Notes under the pieces: generated by a model
Database searches by the model: none
Told to the model about the DNA's origin: nothing
The model's input: the letters and a program-made list of their open reading frames with translations, nothing else
Shown here: one piece after another, positions 44,493-63,262 of the stretch
How the letters are laid out: the number at the start of each line of letters is the position of its first letter
Position numbering within the stretch: the first letter of the stretch is position 1
NCBI GenBank assembly: GCA_000165345.1
Contig: CM000429.1
Span: forward strand, 256,001-320,000
Direction: 5' to 3'
Length of the DNA: 64,000 nucleotides
Translations under genes and position numbers: made by a program

Positions 44493-44580
44493 TTTGCTTA
44501 TTTTAACCACTTCTATTAATTTTGTCAGGCAAAATTCTGTATTGCTTTTTCTTTCCGTGTGAAAACGCTCACAAGATTGT

Positions 44581-44588: not shown

Positions 44589-45024
44589 TTTTGTTTTGAC
44601 ATAAAGTGAGCTTTCTATAAAATAGGTTGCAAAAAAAAAAATCCGTCTTGATCTTCAAAAACTGTTTAGTATTAATGGAATATAGGTAGCTACTGCTTTA
44701 ATATTAACTTATTTTTGAGTTTTTCTTCTTTCTAAGTAATTTTGTAGAATTATGCATTTAACGCAAAATAATAATTTTTATAGTGGCACCATTATGGCGC
44801 CAACTGCTAGATCTAAATTTTTGGTGAGCGAGAACCAAGATGTTTAAAAAACTCTAAGAAGATTAAGAAATATCAAAAAAACAAGCAATTTCCTAATGAG
44901 TAAGATAACGTTGACTGTATTTATCTGATTTACTAAGAGCCTGAAAATCAGATACACTTTTTTCTATTGTTTGGTTCTTTATATAGAACTCTTTCGCCAT
45001 TTACACGAAGGATTAGATATTCCA

Positions 45025-48000
45025 ATGTCAAGAACCAAAAAGAGCTGGAAGAGGAATAATTCTGGCTTCCAGCTTTACATTAAACTTATTCCTGCTATTC
45101 TTCTTTGGATATTTTTTCTTTCTGGGAAAGTTTTATCATCTAATACTTATGAAAATCTTCAAAGCTCAAGAACAGGCAACTACTCTCCTCTCAGATACGA
45201 AGAAGCCTCAAGTAATTTTCAGGAAGGTAATAAACAACATCATTCTTTTATAAAAACTGGGAATTTAACTCCAGATGGACCATTATCCACTAGGAAATCT
45301 AGTTTAAATTCAGCACCTGATGAATCTCAGAAAAAAGACCCACTTTTAACCCAGCAAAATCCCTCCAGTGCATTCCTTCCTGAGATATTTATGTCCCAAT
45401 TGGACATGGAGTATGGGAATAGAAATCAGGGATCAGGGAGAATCACAGATAAAAATTCTGATGAGAGATCAGAAAGCAGCTTAAACTTACAAATATCGTC
45501 CTTGTCAACTTCTCCAGCAACAACTCTAGAATCTGATTTACAAAAATTATCTTCGGAACCAAATTCTTTAATGAATACTTCACTGAGTTTTTCTCCTCCG
45601 CCTGCTCCGCCACCACCTCCGCCTCTTCCAGGCCAATCCCCGACGAATAGTCCAAGTTTTCAGATGCTTGATCCTTTGTTTGAGCCTATAAATAAGAAGA
45701 AACAAGATGAATTCATTAAAGATTTAACAAAAATTAAATTAGTCTCAGATGTCCTACCAGTTCCTTTTAAGAAAAGCGAGCAGAAGTACGAATTTGGTTA
45801 TAGCCGCAATAGAAACCAGAGCCTAAACAATTATAAAATAAAGAATCTTGCAATAACTAGAGAAGAATTTAAGGAAAACCAGAAGAAACTGGAAGAGAAA
45901 GACCCTGAGCAGCAAGGTAAAGCTATTGATACTCCAGAGAGAGCTGAAGAAGACAAGATTGAGATGCTTCCATTACCTCTTGGGCCTCCAATTCCTGGTA
46001 CTGAGCCTGGAATAGAGGGTTTATCTCATATTATACCTTTAGATAAAGTACCAATTAGGCCTCAAAAGCGACAGGATGAGTGGGAATGCATTACCTCGCA
46101 GGTTGAAAGAGACAAAACCACATGGAAGATTGAAAAAGGTAAAATGAGGTTTAACTATATCCCAAAATTCAGTGAAATCAGCCAATCAATTTTTCCTTTA
46201 AGCGGAGATCCTAAAAGTTTGTATTATAACTGTATCTCAGCACTGAAGGCTTTGGAAGCTAAGTTAATTATTACTCCACCTTCCAGTGATGAGATTGAGG
46301 CAGAGTTTCTCAGAACTACCTTTTGCATTTCTGCTGCAGTATTTTGTTACGTAGAAACTGCCATGGGAGATCCAGAACTTCAGCTCTTTTGGAATCGTGA
46401 AGTTAGAACGATTACTGATGCCCTTGTTGCCAGGGATCCGAATTTGGATCTCCTTCAGGTTGTAGGTGAGAGTTTGGCTACAAAGATTGATACTCATGTT
46501 GGATCAACAGGAATTTCCTCCCCAGATCGTTTGCCAGATTTTATGCCTCAGAGAATGCCTAACCAAAGTTTTTCCTTTGCCTCCACAAAGTTGGAAACTT
46601 GCCCTACCAGGAATCAAAGAACCGATCAGGGAGACTATGAATATGAGGGAGGGCTTGCTGTAGCTTTGTCAACTAATATTAATGGTGTAATTGTTGATGA
46701 TCCTGAAATTTGGACAATGTGGAAAGCTATCATTACACAAAAGGATAGGGATTTAAATATGAATTTGAAGAGATTTAAGATTTTTTCAAAGGATTTTCCA
46801 GTAAAGTTTAGCTCAGATACAAAGCCAAAGAAGATGAGGGAGATGCGGAATTTATGCGTGGAACTAATAAGGGAGGGAATTAAAGAAAATCCTCCAAGAT
46901 ACGAACTTTTACCTTTGGCAAAACCAAATGAGGAGCAAGTTTTGAATGAGTTTTGTAACTATGCAGCAGACTACTACTTTGGAAATAGACAATGGAGTTA
47001 CATTTATGACTTTTCCTTAAATTCAAAATATATTAATGGGGTACCGGTTTACAGACCATATGCACCTTTTAGATATTTTGCAGCTGAAACATTTAATGAG
47101 ATGAGGAACAATTGTTGTTCAGTAATTTACGACCTCTTCTTAAGCAAAGTATTTCCTCACCTTTCTACAAATCACTATAGAGACAAAGGTGCTTCAATGG
47201 ATAAGTCAAAATTGGAACGATTCTGCCATGAAGCAGCTGGAAAGTACTTTAAGAAGGATACCTCAGAGTTTGACTCAAGGCTAAAGAATGTAGGATACTT
47301 TGATTTTGCAAGCTATAAATCAAGGGTAACCAATTACAAGAAAGCAAATTACCAATCTTTAGTATTAGAAGGTATGCATGACTTGGAGGATACTCCAGGA
47401 CACTTTTCAATAGGAAGTATTGATGGGAATCTAAGCTACACTCCAAGATTTCCAAACTTGAAGCCAACAAGAGTCTGTTTTTCACAGTGGAAGGCAATTC
47501 TAGACCAAAATAAGGAGGATCTTAAAAACAATATAGAAACTCCAACTCACTTGCCTGATGTAATTCCTAGTGAATGGAATATGCCTCAGTTTTCTCGAGC
47601 AACCTTTAAGATAACTTGCTTTAGAATATTACGTAAGTTATACAGAGAAGGAAGTGTTTCATTAAGATCTAGTGTTTTGAGACCAAGCAGTGTTGAGCAA
47701 AACATGGAGAAGATTTTCTCAGACTTTTGTACTGAGGCTTCCAAGAGATACTTTGATGGGCTAAACACAGATTATTCAATGGAAAGTCTTCTACAAGTTC
47801 AAGCTGATACAGAATCTCAGTGGAATTCGGTAGTAGAAGCTATAATGAGGCTTCAAGAGAGTAAGAAGAGCACAACAATCTATTGGGTTTACCCTATTCC
47901 TCCAGAAAGTTATGCTCTGAGTTTATTTAGATATAACGTGAACCCTTCTTCAGAAGATGAGGAAGAGGAGGAGAAGATTAAAAAGAGCTTTTGGAAATCA

Positions 48001-51000
48001 AGGGAAGGAGAAGTAGGATATGAAACTAGGTGCATCGAGTCATTAAAATTTTATAAAGCTAAAAGCGATGAAGAAATAATGAAAATGGAGGTTGACACCA
48101 AGGATATGGCATTAATTGAAATGGCAATGAGAAAGGTTTGTGAAGAAGCTGCTGACTCATTCTTCGGAGCAATTGAATGGATTTGGATGTATAAGCTTTC
48201 AAATATTGACAATATTAACAAGTATGCAACTTGGGTTCCAGCAGTTACAGGCCTGCCTAAGAGAAGACCAAATAGTTCTCTTTTAAAATACAAAGGGACA
48301 GGAAACATAGTACAATTCAGAAACTACTGCTTTGCATTTGTTTGGACCCTATGGAAATCAGGAAATGAGCCAGATCTAAGAATTTCAGGAAAGCTATATT
48401 CTCCAGGAGAGGGAAGTTTGGTGGATCAGAAGGCTCAGCTTGAGAGATGGTGCACTCATGTTGCGAACGAAGCCTATAACTCTGGATATAAGCTTTCTTT
48501 AGAAAAGAAGAAACAAGAAGGGATAGTCGACCTTATGCCTAGAGCAGACCCTCAGACCTCTCTCTCCGCGGTAGAGCATGAAAACAAGTCAGAACAAGAA
48601 AGCGCGCAGGTGATAGAAGGAGAAACTGTTGTTTTCTCTTTTGGAAACGCATCTTCACAGTGGAAAATGATCCTCTCACAAATTGAGGTAGATCGAAGAC
48701 GTAATATTAAAAGAATTGCTTGGCTTCCAGAGTATTCCGAAATTAAAGAATATTTCCCAGGGCCTGTCGAAAGGCGCCACTTTGTGCCCGCCTGCATGCA
48801 AATTTTGCAAAAGCTGGGTGAAAGAGGACTTTTGGTGTGGGGAACAGTCTCACCAGAGTACCAGGGAGTAGTGATCAGAGAATTTTGTTCAGATGCCTTC
48901 ATGAATGGATATGAGTGGAGAAATGACGACTCAAATCCAATTTCTGCACCATATGGAGAAAAGGAGGCAAATAGAGAGTTGCTCATAGAGTTTTTGAAAT
49001 TCATGCACACAAATCGAATGAACATAAGGAAGTGGATTCTTTTTTACTTGAATGAGAATTTGAATCTTGATTATGCAATAACGTGGGCTATTAATGAAGA
49101 TAACTGGGGTTATTTGAACGATTACTTCCATCAGTCACAACTTCACGAACCTGAAAACTTTGATCAGCTTTTTGAAGAGGTTAGGGAGAGAGTAAGGCAG
49201 ATGGGAGGTTTTGTAGATGCCTCTGGGGATGATTACTTCTCTAATAGTCCAACAGCTAGGGAGAATTTATGGAAAGCAATTTACAATCAAATGCATATAG
49301 ATTTACTTCTTGGAAGACAACAAAGAGTTTCAAATCTTCCATTGAATCCTCCAGAGATTTGGCTGGGCTCAAAGAGTCCAGAGGAATTTGTAGCCGATTG
49401 CAAAAGAGTGATAACAATGTTGCAAGGCCAAACAAACCCTGATTTGCCTTCAAGTAAAGAGCTAACATTAAAGGAGATTCTTACTGCTGTTAGAGTCTTT
49501 GCAAGTGGTGATAAAGACGATTCTGAAATACTTAATTCATATTGCGATGATGTTCTTCTGCATGTTTCTGATAAAAGAGGAAGCTCAATTTTCAAAGGTA
49601 GTGGATTTAGTTATCCAGGAGCAATTTTGGAATTTGAAAGAAATAGACAATGGGGAGTCATTGCAAATTTAGAAAGTAAGTACTCAAAGCTTGAGCAAAG
49701 AGATGTTGATGGCAAAATTGGCTCTATTTCGAGAATCTCGAAAATTCCAGGGTTTGTAAGGCACACCATATTCCAAGGAAGCTATGATATGGAGGAATTC
49801 CAGTCTCAATGCGAAATTGCTCTTCAAACTTTGGCAACTGATATTAATATTCCGTCACATCTACGGGTTGTTTTTCCCGATATGCATGCTGGAGAAAAGA
49901 TTGAGGATATCATAAAAGAATATTGCAGAACTGCTTCCGAATACGCTTTCCAAGAAAAGGTTGATCACGCTCTAAGTGAAGATGCAACAGAAGAAGCTGC
50001 AATTTTGAATGATTTGGACACTGTTAGTCGAAAATTCAAGCTAAGAAATCCTTTGGGTCTAGACTACTCCAAACGATGGAATAGCATTATAGACCTCGCT
50101 AAGAAAAGAATTGAAGAAGAAAAGTACTTAAGGATGAATAGAGTGCTTGAGATCGACTCTGCGTGGCTTAAGAATACTTATCCAGAGATTTCAGGGAAAG
50201 ACTTAAAAAATGCTTTTGATTCAAAGGGAAATAATCACCTTGCAAGCTTTGTATTAGTCTCATATGAGCTTTTTTCAGCTATTTTGCTTGGAAAGGAAGG
50301 GAATAATGGAGCTAATAAGGACAAATTCAAGTTCATATCCAGGAAAACTCTACTACAATTCTGTAGAGATGTCTGCTACAAGTATTTTACCGATGAAGCA
50401 AGAGGTGACGTAAACTACTCTAGCCGAGATAAAGCAGCTACGGAAAACGCTTTGATTCTTGACATGATTGCAACCAGACCTAGAATTGGCCCTGACCCGA
50501 GAGACCCACTTTACGAGCTTTATCCTGAACAAGGAGAGGAGGTCCCTGAATTAAATAGCTTTAATATGGACCAGTATATCACCTCTAGGTGGGAAATCTA
50601 CAAAAAAGACTTTGAAAGTGACAGTTACAAGGAAAATTTGCGCAAAAATATTATGGATAGTCTCACTTCTGCAGAAATTAATCTCCTTAATCCTGGAAGT
50701 GGAAAACCTTCACCTATTGGAAATAATATTGTTTGGGCGCCAACTGCCCCCTATCCCTGGAAGCACCACACTGCAAGCAAAATTGCATTGCAAGGGAATG
50801 CGCATGCATCAAATGGTGGAGCCGTTTTGGCGGGTAAAACGTTGGAGCATATGAAGTCAATTTTCGGAGGAAATATTGCAGATGTTGCAAAGGTTGCAGT
50901 CATTCCGGCAATTCCAGACCCCAATTCTAGAAAGCAAAATGGAAAGTCAGATCATCAGAGTGGTAGTGGATCTTCTACAGATTTTGGAACAAGTAATCGC

Positions 51001-52356
51001 ATTTTACCTTTGGGCGACTTTGGAGAGACCGCCAAGGTCAAAAGACTCAAAATTGGAACTAAAGGTGGAAGGGCGATTAAAGGAAGGGAAGTTAACCCTA
51101 TCGAAGACAAGTTTGATCAAATAGATAGAGAGTATAAAGAATTGGTTTCTAATAACTTTATCTCTAAAGGAGCCTTAGGCGAAAATGAAGAGAAAAATAT
51201 TATAAGTGGAATCAAGCCTAGGAATAGGAGTAATCCTGATCGAATCTCACAAGAACCCAGGAAAAAGATCAGATCTAATCGGAGCAAAGGTAGCCGCTCT
51301 TCTGACGCTTCAGTCGCAGAAGGTGAACCACCTGAGGGAAGCTTGGAAGAAAAGACTTTAACCAAGGAAGAGTTAGCAAGTTCTAGATTAGCTGATAGAG
51401 AATGGACTGTCATTTCTCAACTGGGGAAGATTTTACCTGCAAATGAGGGGTCAAATTTAGTAGCAGGGATTCCAATTGAAAGGCCAAAGGACTTTTACAA
51501 AAAACCTATGGGAAATGTAAGAGGTATGACTGAAGCCTGTTTCTCTGTCATATCTAATGCAAAATTTAGAGCAATTTCAGGTACTCGAATTTCTGGAAAA
51601 ACAAAGGAGGAAAGAAGACAGAATGCTAACTTTTACTGCAGGAAGGCAGCCGAAGCCTACTATGAATCTATTGATGGAGAATTTATTCCCCCTAAAGGCT
51701 TTGAAAACCTTCCAGGATTCTATGGGCTATATAGTTCTATTGGGAAATCCAAAGCTGTTCGAGGAAGAGGTAATCGTGTCTTCCTAGGAGAAAGCTCTGC
51801 AAACCCAATAGGTAAAGAGGTGGGCCTGAAACCATTACATAAGGAATCTGCCAGAATTAGAAGATCCTTTGGTCCAACAGTTGGTTCTTTTGGACTAAAT
51901 GTTCATATGCAGAATCAGTCTAACTCTTTAGCAAATACTTATAGCAAAATTTCTGCAGCTGATTCAACTGTAATAAGCGGATTCGGTATTAGTGGTAAGG
52001 CGTCCAGAATTAAAAGGAGTGTTTTTACAGACTCCAAGAATAATGTCAGAGAGAGATTAGAGCTGAGTCCAGGAGATGATTTACTGACTGATCCTGACTA
52101 TTATAATGATGTAAAACCTGTAACAACTCCGAACAGTTATGTTGAAATGAGGCCATCAAAAGGACTTGGGTCAGGGGCCCCAAGGCCTGGAAAGTCACCA
52201 AAAAAAGATAAATTTGGCAATCCAGAGGTTTATTATGTTCATCCAAGACCAGATATAGTGGAAGAAGCTAAGATAAAATCTCAGCTTGCTAAACGAATTA
52301 ACCAATTTTCTACAATTAACAAACCAGAAAATAAAAATCGTCCAAATAGTAGTTAG
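45025..52356 (+). CDS. giant secreted/anchored protein (2443 aa) composed of ~10 tandem copies of an undescribed ~200-250-aa module; Pro-rich N-terminal region; Gly/Arg/Lys-rich C-terminal region
   Basis: Track ORF starts at TTG 44971. The first ATG is 45025 (MSRTKKSWKRNNSGFQLYIKLIPAILLWIFFLSGKVLSS is a basic N-region plus hydrophobic core). Each unit pairs a W-[KN]-x-I-[ILV] motif with a [FY]-C-x-x-[AV]-[AS]-x-x-[YF]-[FY] motif downstream. The W motif occurs as QWKAILDQNK, MWKAIITQKD, QWKMILSQIE, LWKAIYNQMH, RWNSIIDLAK and QWNSVVEAIM. The C motif occurs as EFCNYAADYYF, RFCHEAAGKYF, DFCTEASKRYF, KVCEEAADSFF, RWCTHVANEAY, EFCSDAFMNGY, EYCRTASEYAF, QFCRDVCYKYF and FYCRKAAEAYY. Confidence 0.8.
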   Translation: MSRTKKSWKRNNSGFQLYIKLIPAILLWIFFLSGKVLSSNTYENLQSSRTGNYSPLRYEEASSNFQEGNKQHHSFIKTGNLTPDGPLSTRKSSLNSAPDESQKKDPLLTQQNPSSAFLPEIFMSQLDMEYGNRNQGSGRITDKNSDERSESSLNLQISSLSTSPATTLESDLQKLSSEPNSLMNTSLSFSPPPAPPPPPPLPGQSPTNSPSFQMLDPLFEPINKKKQDEFIKDLTKIKLVSDVLPVPFKKSEQKYEFGYSRNRNQSLNNYKIKNLAITREEFKENQKKLEEKDPEQQGKAIDTPERAEEDKIEMLPLPLGPPIPGTEPGIEGLSHIIPLDKVPIRPQKRQDEWECITSQVERDKTTWKIEKGKMRFNYIPKFSEISQSIFPLSGDPKSLYYNCISALKALEAKLIITPPSSDEIEAEFLRTTFCISAAVFCYVETAMGDPELQLFWNREVRTITDALVARDPNLDLLQVVGESLATKIDTHVGSTGISSPDRLPDFMPQRMPNQSFSFASTKLETCPTRNQRTDQGDYEYEGGLAVALSTNINGVIVDDPEIWTMWKAIITQKDRDLNMNLKRFKIFSKDFPVKFSSDTKPKKMREMRNLCVELIREGIKENPPRYELLPLAKPNEEQVLNEFCNYAADYYFGNRQWSYIYDFSLNSKYINGVPVYRPYAPFRYFAAETFNEMRNNCCSVIYDLFLSKVFPHLSTNHYRDKGASMDKSKLERFCHEAAGKYFKKDTSEFDSRLKNVGYFDFASYKSRVTNYKKANYQSLVLEGMHDLEDTPGHFSIGSIDGNLSYTPRFPNLKPTRVCFSQWKAILDQNKEDLKNNIETPTHLPDVIPSEWNMPQFSRATFKITCFRILRKLYREGSVSLRSSVLRPSSVEQNMEKIFSDFCTEASKRYFDGLNTDYSMESLLQVQADTESQWNSVVEAIMRLQESKKSTTIYWVYPIPPESYALSLFRYNVNPSSEDEEEEEKIKKSFWKSREGEVGYETRCIESLKFYKAKSDEEIMKMEVDTKDMALIEMAMRKVCEEAADSFFGAIEWIWMYKLSNIDNINKYATWVPAVTGLPKRRPNSSLLKYKGTGNIVQFRNYCFAFVWTLWKSGNEPDLRISGKLYSPGEGSLVDQKAQLERWCTHVANEAYNSGYKLSLEKKKQEGIVDLMPRADPQTSLSAVEHENKSEQESAQVIEGETVVFSFGNASSQWKMILSQIEVDRRRNIKRIAWLPEYSEIKEYFPGPVERRHFVPACMQILQKLGERGLLVWGTVSPEYQGVVIREFCSDAFMNGYEWRNDDSNPISAPYGEKEANRELLIEFLKFMHTNRMNIRKWILFYLNENLNLDYAITWAINEDNWGYLNDYFHQSQLHEPENFDQLFEEVRERVRQMGGFVDASGDDYFSNSPTARENLWKAIYNQMHIDLLLGRQQRVSNLPLNPPEIWLGSKSPEEFVADCKRVITMLQGQTNPDLPSSKELTLKEILTAVRVFASGDKDDSEILNSYCDDVLLHVSDKRGSSIFKGSGFSYPGAILEFERNRQWGVIANLESKYSKLEQRDVDGKIGSISRISKIPGFVRHTIFQGSYDMEEFQSQCEIALQTLATDINIPSHLRVVFPDMHAGEKIEDIIKEYCRTASEYAFQEKVDHALSEDATEEAAILNDLDTVSRKFKLRNPLGLDYSKRWNSIIDLAKKRIEEEKYLRMNRVLEIDSAWLKNTYPEISGKDLKNAFDSKGNNHLASFVLVSYELFSAILLGKEGNNGANKDKFKFISRKTLLQFCRDVCYKYFTDEARGDVNYSSRDKAATENALILDMIATRPRIGPDPRDPLYELYPEQGEEVPELNSFNMDQYITSRWEIYKKDFESDSYKENLRKNIMDSLTSAEINLLNPGSGKPSPIGNNIVWAPTAPYPWKHHTASKIALQGNAHASNGGAVLAGKTLEHMKSIFGGNIADVAKVAVIPAIPDPNSRKQNGKSDHQSGSGSSTDFGTSNRILPLGDFGETAKVKRLKIGTKGGRAIKGREVNPIEDKFDQIDREYKELVSNNFISKGALGENEEKNIISGIKPRNRSNPDRISQEPRKKIRSNRSKGSRSSDASVAEGEPPEGSLEEKTLTKEELASSRLADREWTVISQLGKILPANEGSNLVAGIPIERPKDFYKKPMGNVRGMTEACFSVISNAKFRAISGTRISGKTKEERRQNANFYCRKAAEAYYESIDGEFIPPKGFENLPGFYGLYSSIGKSKAVRGRGNRVFLGESSANPIGKEVGLKPLHKESARIRRSFGPTVGSFGLNVHMQNQSNSLANTYSKISAADSTVISGFGISGKASRIKRSVFTDSKNNVRERLELSPGDDLLTDPDYYNDVKPVTTPNSYVEMRPSKGLGSGAPRPGKSPKKDKFGNPEVYYVHPRPDIVEEAKIKSQLAKRINQFSTINKPENKNRPNSS

Positions 52357-52440: not shown

Positions 52441-53427
52441 TTATACTGTGTCATTGCATGTGATCACAAGAAACATCCGAGTGGATTGGATCGGAAGTCC
52501 CTTGGTCTGATTTATTATGGATATAGTACCATCGCATCTGGCCAAAATAATACTTGATAATGAGTTATTAATAGTTCTGGGAAATGCTTCTGCTACAGCA
52601 ATTTCTTGTCCATATTTAACCCTTCTATTTCTAGAAATTGTTTTGGAAAAGTGAATAACAACAGGTTCTGCTGCAAAATATGCAGCAAAAATAGAAGTCT
52701 TAATTTCAAGTGGTACGTAGGTTTCGGGGCGCATTTTGTTTCCATTATAATTAGAGTTCATTACATCCTCATTTGATGTCATATCCTGTATGAACAGCTT
52801 CCTTGTGGCTTGAGGATTTCCAAATGTAGAGTTGGATTTGTTACCAGGATCTGAACCAAAAAATAGATATTCACAACTATCAATTTGATTCTGATTTGTA
52901 TTAGTTTGCTTTTCTTTTGAATCTTCCTTTTTCTTCTTTTGCCTTCTGATATACTTTGACCACCAGTACTTCATTCTACTACCACTTTTCTCCTTCTGGC
53001 TTTCATTGGATTCCTTTTCTGGTCTCAAATTATTTTTATTCTTTTCAGATTTGTTGTCAGATTTACTCTCCGACTTGTTTTCTGACTTCTTTTCTGACTT
53101 CTTTTCTGACTTCTTTTCTGACTTCTTATCAGACTTTTCAGAAGTCTCCAGGTTTTCAGAAGATTTAACCCCAGTCATTTTAGAATCCCTCTTGTTAACA
53201 TAATGATAAACTCCAAATCTAATAGCATTACTGGTTAAGCTTGAGACAGAATTGATGAGAAAATCCTTATTATCAAATGGATCCACTGGCTCAGACTCAT
53301 CAGAAGCCATATGTAACCTATAATACTCATCATCTGATGCCTCCAAATTTCCTTAATTTTTGAAATAGAAGAAAATTAATTCTTTCCTATAACTTTGATT
53401 TGATTGAGCAACTTACCTTTCCCCCAT
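52441..53427 (-). CDS. hypothetical protein with internal (S-E/D-K-K)n repeat; tentative 2-exon model 53427..53417 + 53317..52441 (295 aa), or unspliced 53310..52441
   Basis: Track ORF starts at TTG 53346. The in-frame ATG is at 53310 (MASDESEPVDPF...). Upstream on the minus strand, ATGGGGGAAAG is followed directly by GTAAGTTGC (53416..53411). The only acceptor keeping the frame is TATTATAG (53325..53318), giving MGER|LHMASDE.... The C-terminal ~130 aa look like a folded domain (YFAAEPVVIHFSKTISRNRRVKYGQEIAVAEAF...ILARCDGTISIINQ). Confidence 0.55.
53048..53143 (-). repeat. degenerate 12-nt tandem repeat (about 8 copies, core GACTTCTTTTCT) inside a CDS, encoding (SEKK/SENK/SESK/SDNK)n
   Basis: ...TCTGACTTCTTTTCTGACTTCTTTTCTGACTTCTTTTCTGACTTCTTATCAGAC... 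Confidence 0.9.
53318..53416 (-). other. tentative spliceosomal intron (99 nt) in KSE-repeat gene
   Basis: On the minus strand GTAAGTTGC...GAGTATTATAG. It is the only frame-preserving acceptor. The polypyrimidine tract is weak, so it is tentative. Confidence 0.35.
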
Positions 53428-53814
53428 AATGTTTTAACTCCAAAATGTATTGGAATTCGAAGACCAGAACAATAGAGTTCTTCGCAGATCCAATCAGAAA
53501 GAGCAGGCCAAGATCTTTGAATCTGCCTTAATGAGCTTTCCTCTGTATCAGTACTTTGACGAAAACACTTTGTGGAATCATGGAATCAGTTACTTCTATA
53601 AGGTGGTTGCATGCATGTAGAACTTACCTCAATTTGAAAAACAAGTAATTGAATAAGTAAAAGAGCAAAGTACATTTTTTCTTAAGAAGTTTTAAAATCA
53701 ACCAACTTTAAATCGAACTCATGGTGAGAATCCTAAAAAAAATGAACATTGGCCCAGTCCTTCTTTGGCTGAAAAAGCATTTCGAGACTAAAAAAATAGT
53801 CAACCAAAAACGAA

Positions 53815-53824
53815 ATGGCGCCAA
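53815..53824. promoter_or_regulatory. E2F-like ATGGCGCCAA in the divergent promoter 53427(-)/53998(+)
   Basis: Exact match. Confidence 0.45.
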
Positions 53825-53997: not shown

Positions 53998-55179
53998 ATG
54001 AGTGATATAGGGGAAAAAGTGGAGCTTCATATTTACGACTTAAGTAATGGAATGGCATCTCAACTATCCCCAATGCTTTTGGGAAGAACGATTGAAGCTA
54101 TTTATCATACAGGAGTATTTGTTTATGGGTATGAATACTTTTATGGAGGTGGGATAGTTTGTGTTAGACCAGAAGAGATTACCAGATTGTATGGACTAAA
54201 ACCTATTCGAACATTGACATTGGGAACCACGAAAAAGTCTCAGAAAGAACTAAATAGCCACTTGGAATCAATTTCTAATGAATTTAACAGCGATAACTAC
54301 GACCTTTTAAATCATAACTGTAATCACTTTTCAGATAATATAGTCAAGTTTTTGATAGGAGAAGGTATTCCATCTTATATTTTAGATCTGCCAAATGAGG
54401 TGATGAGAACTCCTTTTGGTTCAATGATTCTTCCAATGCTACAAAAAGCGCAGAAGAGTCAGGCAATTCGCTCAGTTGCAAATGTTTGGAACACGAATGG
54501 AATCAACCCCTCAAATGTGATCAATAAAACTGCAGAGGAGTTCAGTTATTTGAGTTCTGGGTCAAGCTCTACAGGGAGTAGTAGAACAAGCCATCACTCT
54601 AGATCTTCTGGATCTTCAGATAGTATTTCTGAGTTTTCTAAGAAGCTGAGCACTGTTTCCAACAAGTATGGATGGCAGTGCCAAAGAGTATTAGAAACTC
54701 TCGAAACTATACTTTTCAATATTATAAGTAATCCCGGTGACTTAAGATACAGAAGCATTAAATCAACAAGTAATACACTAAAGAGTGTATTAATGAGTAT
54801 AGATGAAGGCCTTGAATTACTATTCTTAGTTGGTTTCCGTGAGAAGCAAGCGGAGGATCAACTTAGATACGAAATACAACTAAGCCAACCACTGAGCAGA
54901 GAGGAAAGAGAGCAATTAGAAACTCAAATTAACTTGGTCAGGCGTACCTTAAGCTCCCTGGGGATGGCAAGTGAGCAAGAAACGCAAGAGTCAGCATGCC
55001 CAGAATCCAAAGCAAGCAATGGATCAAAGTCAGAAAGTACAATTGACTATGTAAAACTATTAGCAGAAGTGAAAGGAATGGGATTTGAGGACAATAAGAA
55101 AATACTACAAGCCCTTCACAAGACTAATGGAGACATCTCCCGCACCGTGTCAATTCTGCTGGATGAACAGAGCCAATAG
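53998..55179 (+). CDS. PPPDE (DUF862, DeSI-type Cys isopeptidase) + PUB domain + C-terminal UBA domain fusion protein (393 aa)
   Basis: PPPDE core is VELHIYDLSNG...IEAIYHTGVFVYGYEYFYGGGI...YDLLNHNCNHFSDNIVKFL, with a His/Cys dyad. PUB motif is ILFNIISNPGDLRYRSIKSTSNTLKSVLMSIDEGLELLFLVGFRE (PNGase-type NPxDxKYRSIR...GF). UBA is IDYVKLLAEVKGMGFEDNKKILQALHKTNGDISRTVSILLD. Confidence 0.75.
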   Translation: MSDIGEKVELHIYDLSNGMASQLSPMLLGRTIEAIYHTGVFVYGYEYFYGGGIVCVRPEEITRLYGLKPIRTLTLGTTKKSQKELNSHLESISNEFNSDNYDLLNHNCNHFSDNIVKFLIGEGIPSYILDLPNEVMRTPFGSMILPMLQKAQKSQAIRSVANVWNTNGINPSNVINKTAEEFSYLSSGSSSTGSSRTSHHSRSSGSSDSISEFSKKLSTVSNKYGWQCQRVLETLETILFNIISNPGDLRYRSIKSTSNTLKSVLMSIDEGLELLFLVGFREKQAEDQLRYEIQLSQPLSREEREQLETQINLVRRTLSSLGMASEQETQESACPESKASNGSKSESTIDYVKLLAEVKGMGFEDNKKILQALHKTNGDISRTVSILLDEQSQ

Positions 55180-55376: not shown

Positions 55377-55437
55377 ATGGCGCCAAACCTACTTCGTAGT
55401 GTTACCAGGAATGGGGGGCCGTTTGGCTTGGCGCCAA
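55377..55437. promoter_or_regulatory. pair of E2F-like sites ATGGCGCCAA (55377-55386) and TTGGCGCCAA (55428-55437) upstream of the KH gene
   Basis: Two palindromes 42 nt apart, 100-160 nt upstream of ATG 55537. Confidence 0.5.
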
Positions 55438-55536: not shown

Positions 55537-56919
55537 ATGTTGAATATTCTGAAAGTTGGAGATAACCAGACAATTGCGCAGATAGAATCTGCGGACGCGT
55601 CGTTCATTGTTGGAACAGGAGGAAGAACAAGAAGAAAACTCGCGGCCGTTTCTGGAACCTCCATTACAATTATTCAGGATGATAGCAAGACAGCCAGGGT
55701 TGAAATAAATGGAGATGCAGCATGTCGTGAAAAGGCTTACTTATATCTTAAATATTTAGTTCAGCAAAAGCATGGCCCAGTAACCATCGATGTTACCCCA
55801 GATTCAAGAGATGACCTTACAATAGTTAATGTTCCAGCTCTTTGTGTTGGATATATTACAGGAAAGAAAGGCCAAGGATTGAGAGCAATAGAAGAAGATT
55901 CTGGAACCTTAATGTTCTTTAGCAGACCAGAGGAAGAGTGTCCAACTGACAGTACCCCTCCAAGCAACGGTGTCCCTATGAACAATGGTAATTCCCAATC
56001 ACAATACATCTTGGCTATATTTGGAGTTGCTAGAAATAGAAGAGCTGCTGAGTTGAGAGTAATGTGTTACATTGAACAAAAGATTAATGGGCACTTTACA
56101 AAAGATTTGAAAGCAGAATCGCATGACCACATTGAGGATCTAGCAACAGATATTGTTCATATTGAAACAGAGGACCTTAGTTATGCTGTAGGAAAAGAGG
56201 GAAATACAAGAAGGAGACTTTGTGCATCTAGTGGAGCGATTATTGAATACGTGGGAAATTTTGCATTTATTCATGGTGACTTGAGTGAGAGAAAGCGCGC
56301 CAAAGAATATTTGGCATGGCTAATTGCCCAAAGAACATCGACAGTCTCTGTTGACACCAGAGCTAGAGAAGATGTAACAGTTGTTTCAATTCCACAAAAT
56401 GTGATAGGGTATGTAACTGGTGCAAAAGGAAGCTTTTTAAGACGTGTTGAAGATGAAACCGGTACCTTTATATTTATTGATGAAAATAAAGGAAACGTTC
56501 TTGAGAGAGTCCTAATATTCTCTAGATCAGCCTTTGGACGCCAAAAAGCTAGAGATTTTATTGAACGCAGAATGTATGAAAAATTGTGTGGCTATGCAGA
56601 TAATAAGAACTATCCACAAAATGGAAATGGATTCAATGGTAGGAACATGAATGGCATCCGCAAAACCAATGGAATTACTTTGAATAATTCGCACTTTGAT
56701 CACCCAATGAAGGGTAACTTTGCTGCAATCCCAAATGCATTCCTCTCACAACCTGGAATCAGTGGACTTGGAGCCCCTAATATGGGAATAGGAAGAAGAT
56801 CAAGAACTAGAGGTGGAGCACCAGAACACCATATTTCTGATAAATCTAGCGGTAAGCCCGCTGGACTTTATGGCGGTAATTTGGTTCCTTTCGGTCTGAG
56901 TGGTGGCGCCTTGTTTTAA
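55537..56919 (+). CDS. KH-domain RNA-binding protein with four KH (GxxG) repeats and Gly/Asn-rich C-terminus (460 aa)
   Basis: Four KH-type units are present: FIVGTGGRTRRKLAAVSGTSITI, VGYITGKKGQGLRAIEEDSGTLMFF, YAVGKEGNTRRRLCASSGAIIEY and IGYVTGAKGSFLRRVEDETGTFIFI. Local GC is higher than in neighbouring genes. Confidence 0.7.
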   Translation: MLNILKVGDNQTIAQIESADASFIVGTGGRTRRKLAAVSGTSITIIQDDSKTARVEINGDAACREKAYLYLKYLVQQKHGPVTIDVTPDSRDDLTIVNVPALCVGYITGKKGQGLRAIEEDSGTLMFFSRPEEECPTDSTPPSNGVPMNNGNSQSQYILAIFGVARNRRAAELRVMCYIEQKINGHFTKDLKAESHDHIEDLATDIVHIETEDLSYAVGKEGNTRRRLCASSGAIIEYVGNFAFIHGDLSERKRAKEYLAWLIAQRTSTVSVDTRAREDVTVVSIPQNVIGYVTGAKGSFLRRVEDETGTFIFIDENKGNVLERVLIFSRSAFGRQKARDFIERRMYEKLCGYADNKNYPQNGNGFNGRNMNGIRKTNGITLNNSHFDHPMKGNFAAIPNAFLSQPGISGLGAPNMGIGRRSRTRGGAPEHHISDKSSGKPAGLYGGNLVPFGLSGGALF

Positions 56920-58389: not shown

Positions 58390-61300
58390 TTATTTGCATG
58401 CAGATAAATTTTTATTGTGGCATGCAATTGTATGCAAAATCAATTCAAAGAAATCGCGAGAGAATTTTTCTCCATCGCAAAGTTTGGATTCAGTGAGTAT
58501 TCTACGAAGATTTGAGCGATAATAAATTAGTCTTTCAGTATCATTTGCAAGGCTTAAAGCGGCTTTAATAAATTCTTTCTTATTACTTGCAATGAGTTCA
58601 TTCAAGTTTAAATTAGTGAGAATGGACCTTCCAACATTTTGAGAATGAAATGACGAAATTTCAGTATAAATGTCTGAAGAATCTATTTGGGAATTTTCTG
58701 ATTGGTCAATACTTAAAGTAATTAATGGAACTCCCATAAAAATACATTCAAATGTCGTGGTTGTTCCAGCATATGGGAAAGTATCTAAAGAAATGTCAAT
58801 ATCATTATAAAGCTCCAGATGAGAGTAATAAGAGTTGCTTAAGGGGATTAAAGAAATTCTATGTGGTTGAATATTGTATTTTGATTTGAAAATTTCAAGA
58901 TAAAAATTGCAACAAGACTGTGAGCTGAATGCTTTGGATTTAAGCAACAAATGGCTTTCAGGAACACTTTTTAGGACTTCACCCCAAAGTTCTATTGTTA
59001 AGGGATGTAATTTAGTAACTCTGTTGAAAGATCCAAAAGTTATAAATCCATTTTTTTTCATAGGAGGTTCGGAAATTGGTGGATGTTGAATTTTTGGTAA
59101 AGTATAACAAAGAAAGCAATTTGGGAGATAAAGTAATTTTTCAGAGTATTTTTGTTTTGTATGAAGAGGATCAACTATCTTATCAGTAATACGATAATCA
59201 ATGTACTTTAATCCAGTAGTGTTTGGATACCCAATCCAAGAGATTTGTATTGGAGAGTTTTTTAAAGCAAATAAAGCCAAGCAATTATTGACTGTATGAC
59301 CACTTAAGTCAAAGAGAATATGGATATTATCACTCCGGATAAGCTTTGAAGAAAATTCAATATCTTTCCCATGTATATATCTCCAATTTTCACTAGGAAT
59401 AAGATCCTTGAAAAAACATGAATAATAGTCATGGTGAGGGGAATTGTCATATATGAAGATATTCAGTTTGACTTGTGAATTGCCTTCTATATTACAATCT
59501 CTAGTTGAGTTCTTTGAGAAATTCTTAATTAAAAATTTTATGGGAGCTAAAATGAAGAATGCAACTGCATGATGGAAGTATTCTGCACCAACAAACCCTA
59601 TATTAATCAATTGTTTGTCTGAAGTTGACTCAATATCTGGAATTTCAGCAATAGGAATTAAATCATCAAGACGGTTCTTGATTTCTCTATGAATCTCGAT
59701 GAATTTATCCCCCCATTCCAAAGATAGGTCATACATATCTTGGTAATTTATATAATAATCGGAGTTATTTATCCAGATTTGAGACTCGCATACATAAGAT
59801 TCTGGAGTAGAGCTGATATCTAAGCAAAGACTCTTTTCAGAATCCTTTAAGTTATTAATAATTGACTCAATTGAATTGTTTCTAATATTACCAATTAACT
59901 TTGGGTTATCTAATGGAATAAAGTAATTCAAAATATACAATAGGTTCTGAAACGCCAAAGTATGGTTAGGATCTAGCTCAAGAGCTACTAGAAAACAGTT
60001 TTTTGCCATCAAAAAGTTCCCACAGTCTCTATAAAGCACTCCAAGATTATTATATACATCGGGAACGCCTTGATTAACTTCGATACACCTTTTAAAATAC
60101 TCGTATGACTCGTCAATCTTACCAATATTACCGTATAAAGCTGCAATAACATTCAATGTAGTAATACAATTTTGATTAATTCTGGAAATCCTTTCATAAC
60201 ATAAAATTGCTTGATCAATAAATCCAAGCTTTCTAAGAATTATCCCAAAGTTATCATAGGCATTAACATTCATAGGATTAAAGTGGATTGAAAGTTTGAA
60301 GCACCAAATGGCCTTTTCTTCCTTACCTAATTCATAATATATTATTCCCAAGTCAGTGTATGCTTCTGAAGATTGTGGAATATATAATATCACTTTTTTC
60401 AAAATGGACTTAACTAGGCTAAATCCAGCATTTTTTTTTCTGGCTTCAACTGCTTTATTATAAAGTAATTTACCAAAATAAGATCTGAAATCATCATTAA
60501 ATGGATTTTTCTTGATTAATCTCTCCATAATACCAATGCTCTTATCAATATTGCCATCGATCTCGAAACAAAGTCTGGATAATGAATACCCAATTTCACA
60601 ATTAATACAGTTTTTGTTTGATTCAAAGCATTCCTGTAGCAAATTCTTGCATCTAGAATAAACTTCAAGATTTTTAGAATCATTTATTCTAATATTCGCT
60701 AAAGGTGGTTGACTAAGTTCTATTCCATTCAAAGATAATATTATCCTAACCATACAATGAATAATATTTGGATAAAATAAAAAACAACTCAAGAAATATT
60801 GATGTGAATTATTTTCCAGAAATTCCAGTTTATTTGATTTGAATAGTATTAAAATTGTCTCCTTGAGACAATTTACTAGTCTATCAATATCCTGATACTT
60901 ATTTGCAATATAATTTAATGCAAGACAAGCATCATCATAATTTTTAAGAGAAATTTGAATAATTCCAAATGACAAAACTTGCATAATTAGTTCATGAATT
61001 CTATCAGTATTCTTTATTGAGTTTTCATTATCGTTAATTGATTCGATATTTGTCATTTTGTAACGAATACAATTCTGGATCAGATCAATTATTAAAGAAA
61101 TAACTCTATCAAAATTTACCAATTTAATATTAAAAATTTGAAGCAGAATCTTGGAGAAAATCATTCCTATAAAGTAAGCCAAGTCCTCCATATCAGACTC
61201 TTCAAACTTTTGTATGTCCGAAAGTTTACTTAAGCATTTATTGCAAGAGTAACTCCTTAAATTAATACATATTTGTTGAAATGACTCAATATTATTTAAA

Positions 61301-61488
61301 AGTTCAATTAAAATTGTGCCCACAATACTAATATGATCATTATTCAATAAATGTTCATCAGCTCCATTCACTACCCATTCTTTGAAATTAATGTTACCAT
61401 CAAATTCGGAATTATTACAAAAGCAAAAAATAGTCATTTCTTGGCAAGTTTCTGGGATTTTATTCGTAACTCCACCATCTTTCAGCAT
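58390..61488 (-). CDS. SPINDLY/OGT-family (GT41) glycosyltransferase with N-terminal TPR repeats (1032 aa); in apicomplexans this family acts as a nucleocytoplasmic O-fucosyltransferase
   Basis: TPR block: AYTDLGIIYYELGKEEKAIWCFKLSIHFNPMNVNAYDNFGIILRKLGFIDQAILCYERIS...VYNNLGVLYRDCGNFLMAKNCFLVALELDPNHTLAFQNL. GT41 catalytic region: IGFVGAEYFHHAVAFFI...HILFDLSGHTVNNCLALFALKNSPIQISWIGYPNTTGLKYIDYRITDKIVDPLHTKQKYSEKLLYLPNCF. Confidence 0.8.
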   Translation of the reverse strand: MLKDGGVTNKIPETCQEMTIFCFCNNSEFDGNINFKEWVVNGADEHLLNNDHISIVGTILIELLNNIESFQQICINLRSYSCNKCLSKLSDIQKFEESDMEDLAYFIGMIFSKILLQIFNIKLVNFDRVISLIIDLIQNCIRYKMTNIESINDNENSIKNTDRIHELIMQVLSFGIIQISLKNYDDACLALNYIANKYQDIDRLVNCLKETILILFKSNKLEFLENNSHQYFLSCFLFYPNIIHCMVRIILSLNGIELSQPPLANIRINDSKNLEVYSRCKNLLQECFESNKNCINCEIGYSLSRLCFEIDGNIDKSIGIMERLIKKNPFNDDFRSYFGKLLYNKAVEARKKNAGFSLVKSILKKVILYIPQSSEAYTDLGIIYYELGKEEKAIWCFKLSIHFNPMNVNAYDNFGIILRKLGFIDQAILCYERISRINQNCITTLNVIAALYGNIGKIDESYEYFKRCIEVNQGVPDVYNNLGVLYRDCGNFLMAKNCFLVALELDPNHTLAFQNLLYILNYFIPLDNPKLIGNIRNNSIESIINNLKDSEKSLCLDISSTPESYVCESQIWINNSDYYINYQDMYDLSLEWGDKFIEIHREIKNRLDDLIPIAEIPDIESTSDKQLINIGFVGAEYFHHAVAFFILAPIKFLIKNFSKNSTRDCNIEGNSQVKLNIFIYDNSPHHDYYSCFFKDLIPSENWRYIHGKDIEFSSKLIRSDNIHILFDLSGHTVNNCLALFALKNSPIQISWIGYPNTTGLKYIDYRITDKIVDPLHTKQKYSEKLLYLPNCFLCYTLPKIQHPPISEPPMKKNGFITFGSFNRVTKLHPLTIELWGEVLKSVPESHLLLKSKAFSSQSCCNFYLEIFKSKYNIQPHRISLIPLSNSYYSHLELYNDIDISLDTFPYAGTTTTFECIFMGVPLITLSIDQSENSQIDSSDIYTEISSFHSQNVGRSILTNLNLNELIASNKKEFIKAALSLANDTERLIYYRSNLRRILTESKLCDGEKFSRDFFELILHTIACHNKNLSACK

Positions 61489-61958: not shown

Positions 61959-61968
61959 TTGGCGCCAA
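61959..61968. promoter_or_regulatory. E2F-like TTGGCGCCAA upstream of CstF-64 ATG 62107
   Basis: Exact palindrome. Confidence 0.45.
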
Positions 61969-62106: not shown

Positions 62107-63095
62107 ATGCATTCTTCAGGAGGAAGTCAGGTCTGGGGTAAGTTTTAAAAGAGTTAAACTTGACAAAAGTGATCATTTAAAATAACTTATCTTTAGTTGG
62201 AAATGTACCATTTGACGCTACAGAAGACGAACTAAGGGAGGTTATGAATTCAGCTGGTCCTGTTCTGTCAATGAGAATTGTGCATGATAAGGACACTGGA
62301 TTGAGTCGTGGGTTCTCTTTTTGCGAATATCGTGATATAGAGACTTGTATTATGGCAATAAAGAGTTTAAATGGATACGAATTAAGAGGGAGATCTATTA
62401 GGGTTGACTGGGCAAGCCAGGATATGAGAAGTAGATATAATCATTTAGTTGTAAATAATACATCTGGTACAGCTCCTGTAACAGCAACAACTCAAGGTGG
62501 GATTGGAATGGGACAACAAGGAACTGAAGGCTTACATCATCCAATATCTTTAACAGCGCCATCTCACGTTCAACAAATTCAGGAGGATGGGACATCTATG
62601 CCTTCAATCCCAAATAACAATGCAAATTTTGATAATATTTCGTCAGAAATTATCCAACTTGTACAAGGAATGACAGTTTCTCAGTTATATTATTTGATAG
62701 GCCATATGCAAAAACTTGTTGTCCAGAATCCTGAAACTGCAAGAAGCATTTTACTTGATAATCCTCAATTTTGTTATGCTCTTCTTCACTCTCAATTCAT
62801 TTTAGGTATGGTTAATGAACCATTTGTTCCACTTAATCAAGAGCAACTTAACAAAGCGAATGAAATCAGAACTAAAGTATTGACTTTAAGAAACGAAAAT
62901 TCTAATATTAATATTAAAAATTTGGGAGAAGATGTTTCTGTTCTTATTGAGGAAATTGCAAACAACCCAAACCCTGCATTACTTCAAGCATTGGCTTCAA
63001 TCCAGCCAAATTCCGTTGCCCAGTGGACTGAAGAAGAAAAATCTAAGATCCTTGCAATCCAACAAGCACTAAAAAATAGGGGGCTAATTAACTAA
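62107..63095 (+). CDS. cleavage stimulation factor subunit 2 (CstF-64) homologue; two exons 62107..62137 + 62197..63095 (309 aa)
   Basis: Track ORF 62244..63095 starts inside an RRM (RNP1 SRGFSFCEY but no RNP2). Upstream ATG 62107 plus the GTAAGTTTT...TCTTTAG intron (62138..62196) supplies MHSSGGSQVWVGNVPFDATEDELREVM (RNP2 VWVGNVPF), matching CSTF2 SVFVGNIPYEATEEQLKDIF. The hinge domain MTVSQLYYLIGHMQKLVVQNPETARSILLDNPQFCYALLHSQ matches CSTF2 MFELMKQMKLCVQNSPQEARNMLLQNPQLAYALLQAQ. The conserved C-terminal EEEKSKILAIQQALK is present. Confidence 0.8.
62138..62196 (+). other. spliceosomal intron (59 nt) in CstF-64 gene
   Basis: GTAAGTTTTAAAAG...AACTTATCTTTAG. It restores the RNP2 half of the RRM. 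Confidence 0.75.
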
Positions 63096-63252: not shown

Positions 63253-63262
63253 ATGGCGCCAA
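63253..63262. promoter_or_regulatory. E2F-like ATGGCGCCAA 22 nt upstream of CHMP1 ATG 63284
   Basis: Exact match. Confidence 0.45.

Follow-up and report, generated by a model that had tools for sequence, protein, structure and literature searches.

What is a cysteine hydrolase of the PPPDE (DeSI) type doing on the same polypeptide as a PUB and a UBA domain? The question is raised by an open reading frame (ORF) at positions 53998-55179 of a 64,000-nucleotide stretch of Cryptosporidium DNA (NCBI GenBank assembly GCA_000165345.1, contig CM000429.1, positions 256,001 to 320,000 of the forward strand; hereafter the window), a complete single-exon coding sequence that is the counterpart of C. parvum cgd1_1270 (name from PMC12604037). 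Coordinates given below are those of the window and refer to its plus strand unless stated otherwise. Our best hypothesis, which is not a demonstrated fact and to which we give about an even chance, is that the gene product is a Cdc48-docked deconjugating enzyme of the ubiquitin system.

As seen from the ORF list and the sequence itself, the reading frame runs uninterrupted over 393 aa from an ATG start to a TAG stop. In a protein database search, full-length orthologs sharing the same start were found in 12 Cryptosporidium clusters at 54-96% identity, the top match being the C. meleagridis protein (96%) and the series descending as far as C. serpentis (54%). This assigns the window to a Cryptosporidium of the parvum/hominis group. 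The window is AT-rich (26-40% G+C), and a CRAL/TRIO (Sec14) gene located at 43107-44510, three ORFs 5′ of the PPPDE-PUB-UBA gene, agrees with the cgd1_1270 gene numbering. The ORF is a genuine Cryptosporidium gene made of three modules, PPPDE, PUB and UBA, and this domain composition is already in the public annotation: cgd1_1270 is annotated as a PPPDE/PUB protein (PMC12604037), and NCBI records of the ortholog in several Cryptosporidium species are labelled ‘UBA/TS-N domain-containing protein’. An earlier, sequence-only reading of the locus had called all three domains, and each call is confirmed by Pfam, by sequence and profile searches against the PDB, and by an AlphaFold2 model compared with solved structures using Foldseek; PPPDE and PUB score above the Pfam cut-off, and the UBA, which falls below it on the single sequence, is found by the ortholog profile.

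The catalytic module, a PPPDE/Peptidase_C97 (DeSI-type) permuted-papain domain recognized by Pfam, phmmer and Foldseek alike, occupies residues 4-152 (54007-54453). Pfam PF05903 aligns to residues 7-148 with E=5.3e-44 and 150.1 bits (cut-off 29.2), covers 149 of its 151 profile positions, and is matched by all 13 orthologs, and phmmer retrieves human PPPDE1 (3ebq, E=1e-31) and mouse DeSI-1 (2wp7, E=5e-30). The modelled domain, in which the predicted local distance difference test (pLDDT) over residues 1-150 is mostly 72-93, has the circularly permuted papain-like fold, superimposing on 3ebq with a template modelling (TM) score of 0.86 and a root mean square deviation (rmsd) of 2.2 Å, and on 2wp7 with TM 0.78 (Foldseek). 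Identity of the PPPDE domain across the genus is 78-99%. The catalytic centre is intact: His37 (codon CAT, 54106-54108), Tyr101 (TAC, 54298-54300) and Cys108 (TGT, 54319-54321) are invariant in 13 of 13 aligned sequences, Cys108 also being invariant in the 97- and 40-member sets of relatives described below. They align with His38, Tyr101 and Cys108 of human PPPDE1 (PDB chain alignment; residue identities from PMC9012467), the His being His38 in both PPPDE1 and PPPDE2. The His/Cys pair first read from the letters is thus present on alignment, with Tyr101 as the third member of a His-Tyr-Cys centre.

At the opposite end of the chain, residues 348-392 (55039-55173) form a ubiquilin/Dsk2-like three-helix UBA domain, identified from an ortholog profile, AlphaFold2 and Foldseek. 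The profile of the C-terminal 49 residues (11 orthologs), searched against solved UBA domains, matches those of ubiquilin-4/-2/-1 with E=1.3e-10 to 7.4e-10 and that of Dsk2 with 3.5e-6, and the Pfam UBA model is matched at E<=0.01 by nine of 13 orthologs (best E=1.7e-6). The helices are modelled at residues 351-359, 366-375 and 380-392 with a pLDDT of about 86, and the model (351-392) fits the Dsk2 UBA 2bwe with TM 0.79 and an rmsd of 0.7 Å (Foldseek). In UBA domains the Met-Gly-Phe loop between helices 1 and 2 is a ubiquitin contact. This loop is intact here, as Met361-Gly362-Phe363 (codons ATG GGA TTT, 55078-55086) is invariant in 13 of 13 sequences and aligns to the MGF of the ubiquilin-4/-2 UBA, and we infer that the domain binds ubiquitin.

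Between the two lies the PUB domain (the name refers to UBA- or UBX-containing proteins), a four-helix bundle with beta strands and a C-terminal helix at residues 216-321 (54643-54960), supported by Pfam, Foldseek and a family profile. Pfam PF09409 matches residues 229-288 (E=7.5e-14, 51.8 bits, cut-off 34.3) as well as each of the 13 orthologs; the AlphaFold2 model resembles the PUB domains of UBXD1 (6sap, TM 0.72) and PNGase (2hpl, TM 0.75) in Foldseek, and the profile of the PPPDE-linked PUB family matches PNGase with E=3e-15 and UBXD1 with E=8e-14. The pocket of PUB domains that receives the PUB-interacting motif (PIM) is described by YxxN(x)9Y plus [K/R]xxN, that is Y181, N184, Y194, K198 and N201 in UBXD1 and Y38, N41, Y51, R55 and N58 in PNGase (PMC6995525). 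Its [K/R]xxN part grips the carboxylate at the C-terminus of the ligand, and the Cdc48/p97 tail to which PIM-binding PUB domains dock is of the type ...DDLY[GS]. A profile of 21 PPPDE-linked PUB domains, which is gapless against PNGase and UBXD1 in this region, set the register and places the motif at residues 238-259 (54709-54774; profile-to-PDB alignment) as I238-x-x-N241-(x)9-Y251-x3-K255-x-x-S258-N259. Only one column is invariant among the 21 domains, that of N241, the pocket Asn; its counterpart in PNGase, N41, forms a hydrogen bond with p97 Tyr805. The second aromatic is kept as Y251, exactly nine residues after N241 (Phe in Neospora), and the basic residue of [K/R]xxN is kept as K255. 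With N241 invariant and both the second aromatic and the Lys/Arg retained, the Cryptosporidium protein probably still has a Tyr-binding pocket, and probably a functional one. The string NPGDLRYRSIK...GF, which the sequence-only reading took as a ‘clear’ PUB signature, is there, at residues 245-255 and 279-280. The fold stands, as does most of the motif, but of the five positions that touch the p97 tail in PNGase/UBXD1 two are changed (Ile238 and Ser258). The neighbouring N259 was considered as a shifted stand-in for the last, cornerstone Asn of [K/R]xxN and was ruled out, the hydrophobic register of the following helix fitting the ungapped alignment and N259 being Ser in C. felis.

Of the arguments given here, the one that most strongly ties the PPPDE clade functionally to Cdc48 comes from the domains to which the peptidase is joined in its relatives, and it is independent of the details of the pocket. 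A profile of the full-length alignment was compared with 1.84 billion representative proteins and gave 6,609 PPPDE relatives, the best 150 of which were retrieved and joined with those from a first search to give a set of 182, the architectures being read by sub-profiles and Pfam. More than half of these nearest relatives are fused to PUB or PUL, both of which are domains reported to bind the C-terminal tail of p97/Cdc48 (PMC7403338; PMC2804184). Measurements in mammals and plants have shown PUB domains to bind the Cdc48 tail; in Leishmania, PUB proteins co-purify with VCP, the tail contact there being modelled only. PUB is present in 52 of the 182 relatives and PUL in at least 44, namely 44 of the 97 long relatives devoid of PUB or UBA by sub-profiles. 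Thioredoxin domains occur in six of the 97, and sometimes accompany PUL. Among stramenopiles the PUL form is seen in Cantina and Lagenidium, for instance, and among fungi in Coprinopsis, and relatives P0034, P0035, P0051 and P0057 are among the PUL carriers. PUB and PUL do not occur together in any protein of the sample of 182, in which most metagenomic relatives come without taxonomy. Because the closest PPPDE relatives are recurrently fused to one or the other of two Cdc48-tail binders, a Cdc48 link is supported, and we infer that the Cryptosporidium protein binds Cdc48. The Cdc48 recruitment proposed by the sequence-only reading is made plausible by these recurrent fusions, whereas the incomplete PIM pocket tells the other way. 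In the literature searched we found no mechanistic link of PPPDE with PUL or PUB, no description of an alternation of PUB and PUL on the PPPDE clade, and no functional study of a PPPDE-PUB-UBA protein. Iyer, Koonin and Aravind reportedly argued in 2004 from PPPDE fusions to ubiquitin-system domains.

The same survey bears on the age of the arrangement. PPPDE-PUB-UBA proteins comprise 12 Cryptosporidium/Neospora sequences and at least nine further 50%-identity clusters, and this count of 21 is a lower bound because the UBA sub-profile, made from Cryptosporidium and Neospora, misses UBA domains that Pfam finds (e.g., in P0050); PPPDE-PUB is found in about 22 clusters and the reversed order, PUB-PPPDE, in eight. 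All three domains are conserved in Neospora caninum, the chromerid Vitrella brassicaformis, Cardiosporidium cionae and Gregarina niphandrodes, and Cyclospora cayetanensis and Lankesteria metandrocarpae have at least PPPDE and PUB. Since the layout occurs in coccidia, gregarines, Cardiosporidium and the chromerid Vitrella, its distribution indicates that it is ancestral to Apicomplexa and chromerids; it is neither a Cryptosporidium feature nor tied to organelle loss. The architecture had been presented as unusual and as suiting a role in endoplasmic reticulum-associated degradation (ERAD) in a parasite with reduced organelles. Neither idea held: the gene was already annotated and its layout is common to the lineages just named, and no evidence was found for the ERAD or ‘reduced organelles’ reading, chromerids sharing the architecture, so that it is not a Cryptosporidium-specific reduction. 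The gene is not a lineage-specific invention, and neither an ERAD nor a virulence role is demonstrated. Among the 40 PUB-bearing relatives from outside Cryptosporidium, in all of which PUB is confirmed by Pfam, 12 carry a ubiquitin-like domain (UBL), three a ubiquilin-1-like domain and two STI1. UBL and STI1 modules are seen only in longer relatives such as P0042, P0045 and P0050, the last being a complete PPPDE-UBL-PUB-STI1-UBA protein, and the long forms originate from marine plankton data (Tara, MMETSP). The apicomplexan protein, judged by these domain orders, resembles a shortened version of the longer PPPDE-UBL-PUB-STI1-UBA protein of other protists, in which a peptidase is joined to a ubiquilin-like shuttle module.

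In the AlphaFold2 model, which was built on 13 sequences and has a mean pLDDT of 71.5, the Cryptosporidium protein consists of three folded beads, at about residues 4-155, 210-321 and 348-392, with linkers of pLDDT <50 between them. All three modules are conserved within the genus, and the linkers are the least conserved regions, except for residues 153-186. Linker 1, which is Ser-rich and variable (residues 187-215, 54556-54642), has pLDDT values of 28-38 and an identity of 3-31% in distant Cryptosporidium species; linker 2, also variable (residues 322-347, 54961-55038; pLDDT 27-45), differs in length and has large insertions in the C. bovis/ryanae group. The exception, a conserved segment directly after the PPPDE domain (residues 153-186, QKSQAIRSVANVWNTNGINPSNVINKTAEEFSYL, 54454-54555), was recognized from its identity across the genus and from AlphaFold2: in 10 of the 11 Cryptosporidium orthologs its identity is 76-100%, comparable to that of the catalytic domain, despite a pLDDT below 50. 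No family match was obtained for this segment; it may extend the active-site groove or serve as a short motif for binding. The end of it, EEFSYLS (residues 180-186), was considered as an internal PIM for the PUB domain in cis and was ruled out, its Tyr not being conserved (AEELSNLS in C. felis, AGEINNLS in the C. bovis group). Neither a signal peptide nor a hydrophobic segment nor a membrane anchor was detected in the protein (peak 19-residue hydropathy 1.24; N-terminus not hydrophobic), which is predicted to be soluble. We would thus picture a soluble beads-on-a-string enzyme, with a PPPDE hydrolase, a PUB and a ubiquilin-type UBA strung on two disordered linkers. The UBA would grip the ubiquitin or ubiquitin chains carried by a client protein, the enzyme would be anchored through its PUB pocket to a short motif of the Leu-Tyr type, for which the C-terminal tail of the Cdc48/p97 hexamer is the likeliest candidate, and the PPPDE domain would remove or trim ubiquitin or a ubiquitin-like modifier from the clients handled by Cdc48.

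Several observations weigh against this hypothesis. The first Tyr of the pocket (PNGase Tyr38) is replaced, by Ile238 in all Cryptosporidium and by Leu in Neospora, and the position is I, L or V in all 43 PPPDE-linked PUB domains inspected; the cornerstone Asn (PNGase Asn58) is Ser258 in 12 of 12 Cryptosporidium sequences. In UBXD1, binding becomes 8-fold weaker with Y181A and 5-fold weaker with N201A, and the PUB domain of SPATA2, which has a Val at the first Tyr position, binds no PIM (PMC6995525). The UBA match on the single sequence (Pfam PF00627, residues 355-387) reaches 17.8 bits, against a cut-off of 22.4, with E=0.0029. As regards the chemistry, the human enzymes PPPDE1/2 have been reported to work efficiently as palmitoyl thioesterases but weakly as isopeptidases (PMC9012467). 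Experiments on cgd1_1270 or on its Toxoplasma ortholog TGME49_311690 are absent from the searchable literature, which offers only one proteomics table. Given that the pocket, as aligned, is only partly canonical, neither its affinity for the Cdc48 tail nor, indeed, its choice of ligand should be assumed, and the altered Cryptosporidium pocket (Ile238, Ser258) could reflect a retuned tail recognition.

A different partner for the PUB domain should therefore be weighed. We think it unlikely, yet deserving of attention, that the same three-domain enzyme does not use its PUB on Cdc48, and that the altered pocket binds a partner with another Leu/Met-Tyr motif, or that a non-PIM surface or a ubiquitin/UBL face of the domain is used instead. 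The presence of the Ile238 type of change in all PPPDE-linked PUB domains and of Ser258 throughout the Cryptosporidium genus would fit such a partner, and there are precedents for it: the SPATA2 PUB, which binds no PIM (PMC6995525), engages CYLD via a non-PIM surface, the HOIP PUB favours the internal PIMs of OTULIN/SPATA2 over p97, and the PUB of PNGase can bind ubiquitin or the Rad23 UBL through a second surface. However, the invariant N241 and the retention of the second aromatic and of the Lys/Arg point to a Tyr pocket that probably functions, and the cornerstone Asn is retained, within RxxN/KxxN, in Neospora and most other relatives. Moreover, sister PPPDE proteins carry PUL, which is a different fold reported to bind the same Cdc48 tail, and this would be hard to explain without Cdc48 as a common partner.

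The bond that is cleaved is a separate matter, since the chemistry of the PPPDE family is contested, with SUMO, ubiquitin or palmitoyl thioesters as substrates (PMC9012467, PMC13015453). The deubiquitinating or deSUMOylating activity that the sequence-only reading had ascribed to the protein is not supported as claimed, this being the very chemistry that is contested (PMC9012467). It could be that the PPPDE domain is a cysteine thioesterase, i.e., an S-depalmitoylase or another acyl/thioester hydrolase, and not an isopeptidase, and that PUB and UBA merely localise it, although we regard this as improbable. PPPDE1 and PPPDE2, whose His-Tyr-Cys centre is the same, have high palmostatin-sensitive S-depalmitoylase activity and are weak on SUMO and ubiquitin substrates (PMC9012467; summarised in PMC13015453). 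Yet the depalmitoylase data were obtained with two artificial substrates, and their authors call the physiological relevance unknown (PMC9012467). In addition, every accessory module of the PPPDE clade (UBA, UBL, UBQLN1, STI1, PUB, PUL) belongs to the ubiquitin/Cdc48 system and none is lipid- or membrane-binding, and the PPPDE-PUB-UBA protein itself is without a membrane anchor. A bolder proposal, which we regard as a long shot, is that the PPPDE clade represents an old, widespread and unstudied class of hydrolases that sit on the exit side of Cdc48, its C-terminal face, with PUB as the tether in alveolates and PUL as that in stramenopiles and fungi, the preferred bond being possibly a thioester or oxyester (ubiquitin on Cys, Ser or Thr, or an acyl group) and not a lysine isopeptide. 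If true, such a preference would remove the conflict between the enzymology of human DESI1/2, strong as thioesterases and weak as isopeptidases, and the presence of domains of the ubiquitin system here.

The cgd1_1270 protein has been detected by proteomics, and its transcript belongs to a module peaking at 12 h post-infection in which two proteasome beta subunits, RPN2 and a Blm10-like activator are also found (PMC12604037); such company agrees better with a role in proteostasis than with the ‘secretory organelle’ label of that study. That the protein is a secreted microneme or rhoptry effector acting on the host cell, as its listing among ‘potential microneme and rhoptry proteins’ in a secretome and transcriptome study might suggest, is very improbable and we reject it, because no signal peptide or hydrophobic segment is present, because the table rests on co-expression and also lists pyruvate kinase, tubulin, histone H2B and proteasome subunits (PMC12604037), and because the architecture is common to the chromerid Vitrella and gregarines.

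How does the proposed Cdc48-docked deconjugating enzyme compare with systems that are better known? Human and mouse DESI1 (PPPDE2) and DESI2 (PPPDE1) (MEROPS C97; 2wp7/3ebq) share the catalytic domain, with 37-39% identity over about 145 residues, TM 0.78-0.86 and the His-Tyr-Cys centre. They are, as had been claimed, single-domain proteins (PDB chains of 168-170 residues), whereas the Cryptosporidium protein adds PUB, UBA and the conserved 34-residue segment. The closest precedent for a PUB-docked enzyme is PNGase/NGLY1, whose PUB (fold match TM 0.75) docks on the p97 C-terminal tail for client processing; PNGase is however a glycanase of the transglutaminase fold, and it has the full pocket Y38-N41-Y51-R55-N58 against I238-N241-Y251-K255-S258 in the Cryptosporidium protein. 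PUB-containing Cdc48 cofactors also include UBXD1/UBXN6 and the plant proteins PUX2 and ECLIPSE (ZnF-UBA-PUB), the last having UBA and PUB on one chain, like our protein, and a PUB that binds the CDC48A tail. Unlike the Cryptosporidium protein, UBXD1, PUX2 and ECLIPSE are adaptors without a catalytic domain, and UBXD1 and PUX2 additionally bind the N domain of Cdc48 through VIM/UBX or SHP elements, of which a Pfam scan detected no counterpart here.

The p97/Cdc48-associated deubiquitinases Otu1/YOD1, ataxin-3 and VCPIP1 have OTU or Josephin domains and bind the p97 N domain via UBX-like or VBM elements. They resemble the predicted organization of the Cryptosporidium protein in combining a cysteine deconjugating domain with a ubiquitin-binding and a Cdc48-binding element in one polypeptide, and differ in that the fold here is PPPDE and the predicted docking is at the C-terminal tail of Cdc48, not at its N domain; an OTU1-VCP association has been noted (PMC7403338). 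In the case of HOIP with OTULIN and SPATA2-CYLD, PUB likewise brings deubiquitinases to their site of action. In HOIP/LUBAC, however, PUB and deubiquitinase are separate proteins and the PIM acts in trans, whereas PUB and peptidase are on one chain in Cryptosporidium. With ubiquilin/Dsk2 the likeness lies in the UBA, which is closest to those of ubiquilin/Dsk2 (E about 1e-10), and in the UBL, UBQLN1-like and STI1 domains of the longer relatives; with Doa1/Ufd3/PLAA it lies in the sister PPPDE proteins, which carry PUL, the Cdc48-tail binder of Doa1/PLAA. Ubiquilin/Dsk2 shuttle factors combine the UBA with an N-terminal UBL and central STI1 repeats. UBL, STI1 and PUL gave no Pfam match in the Cryptosporidium protein, which is neither a ubiquilin nor a homolog of Doa1.

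The surroundings of the gene add a likely E2F/DP promoter element, the palindrome TGGCGCCA at 53816-53823 (no strand assigned), 175 nt 5′ of the ATG. In C. parvum this E2F/DP-like motif is the most over-represented upstream motif (PMC3734150). The window contains 12 TGGCGCCA sites against 0.12 expected, and 20 copies of GGCGCC against 0.85 expected; apart from the site just given, the TGGCGCCA sites are at 55378-55385, 55429-55436, 44795-44802, 61960-61967 and 63254-63261, with six more. At least four lie shortly 5′ of ORF starts, i.e., of the PPPDE-PUB-UBA gene (one), a KH-domain gene (two) and an ORF of 2461 aa (one). The last of these (44971-52356) is directly upstream in gene order and has no Pfam match at E<=0.001. 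On the minus strand, the ORF at 52441-53346 is without a Pfam match and contains low-complexity stretches in which SEKK / SE(N)K is repeated; it possibly reaches about 53650, the sequence at 53346-53650 suggesting one or more further exons of the same gene, and the FLTS/FSD repeat ORFs opposite to it are mirror-image artefacts of the repeat. Downstream, the KH-domain gene (55537-56919) encodes an RNA-binding protein with three KH domains, and the minus-strand ORF at 58390-61488 an OGT/SPINDLY-type enzyme of 1032 aa, which combines TPR repeats with a glycosyltransferase family 41 domain. Further downstream, at 62244-63095, is a gene for a CstF-64-like RNA-binding protein (RRM, CSTF2 hinge and C-terminal CstF domain); its RRM match starts at profile position 21, so that the real start may be in a different exon or 5′ of the ATG in the ORF list.

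For PPPDE/DeSI proteins in general, substrates as different as SUMO, ubiquitin and palmitoyl have been proposed, and the human and yeast models are of little help, the human proteins being bare catalytic domains. Protist PPPDE proteins hold the context on the same chain, in the form of PUB or PUL and, in many cases, also of UBA, UBL or STI1, and these accessory modules therefore point to ubiquitin-marked clients of Cdc48. The hypothesis is testable in genetically tractable relatives, through Toxoplasma TGME49_311690 and in C. parvum. For Cryptosporidium, the gene encodes a cysteine hydrolase of the proteostasis network that is conserved and expressed and could probably be targeted by drugs.

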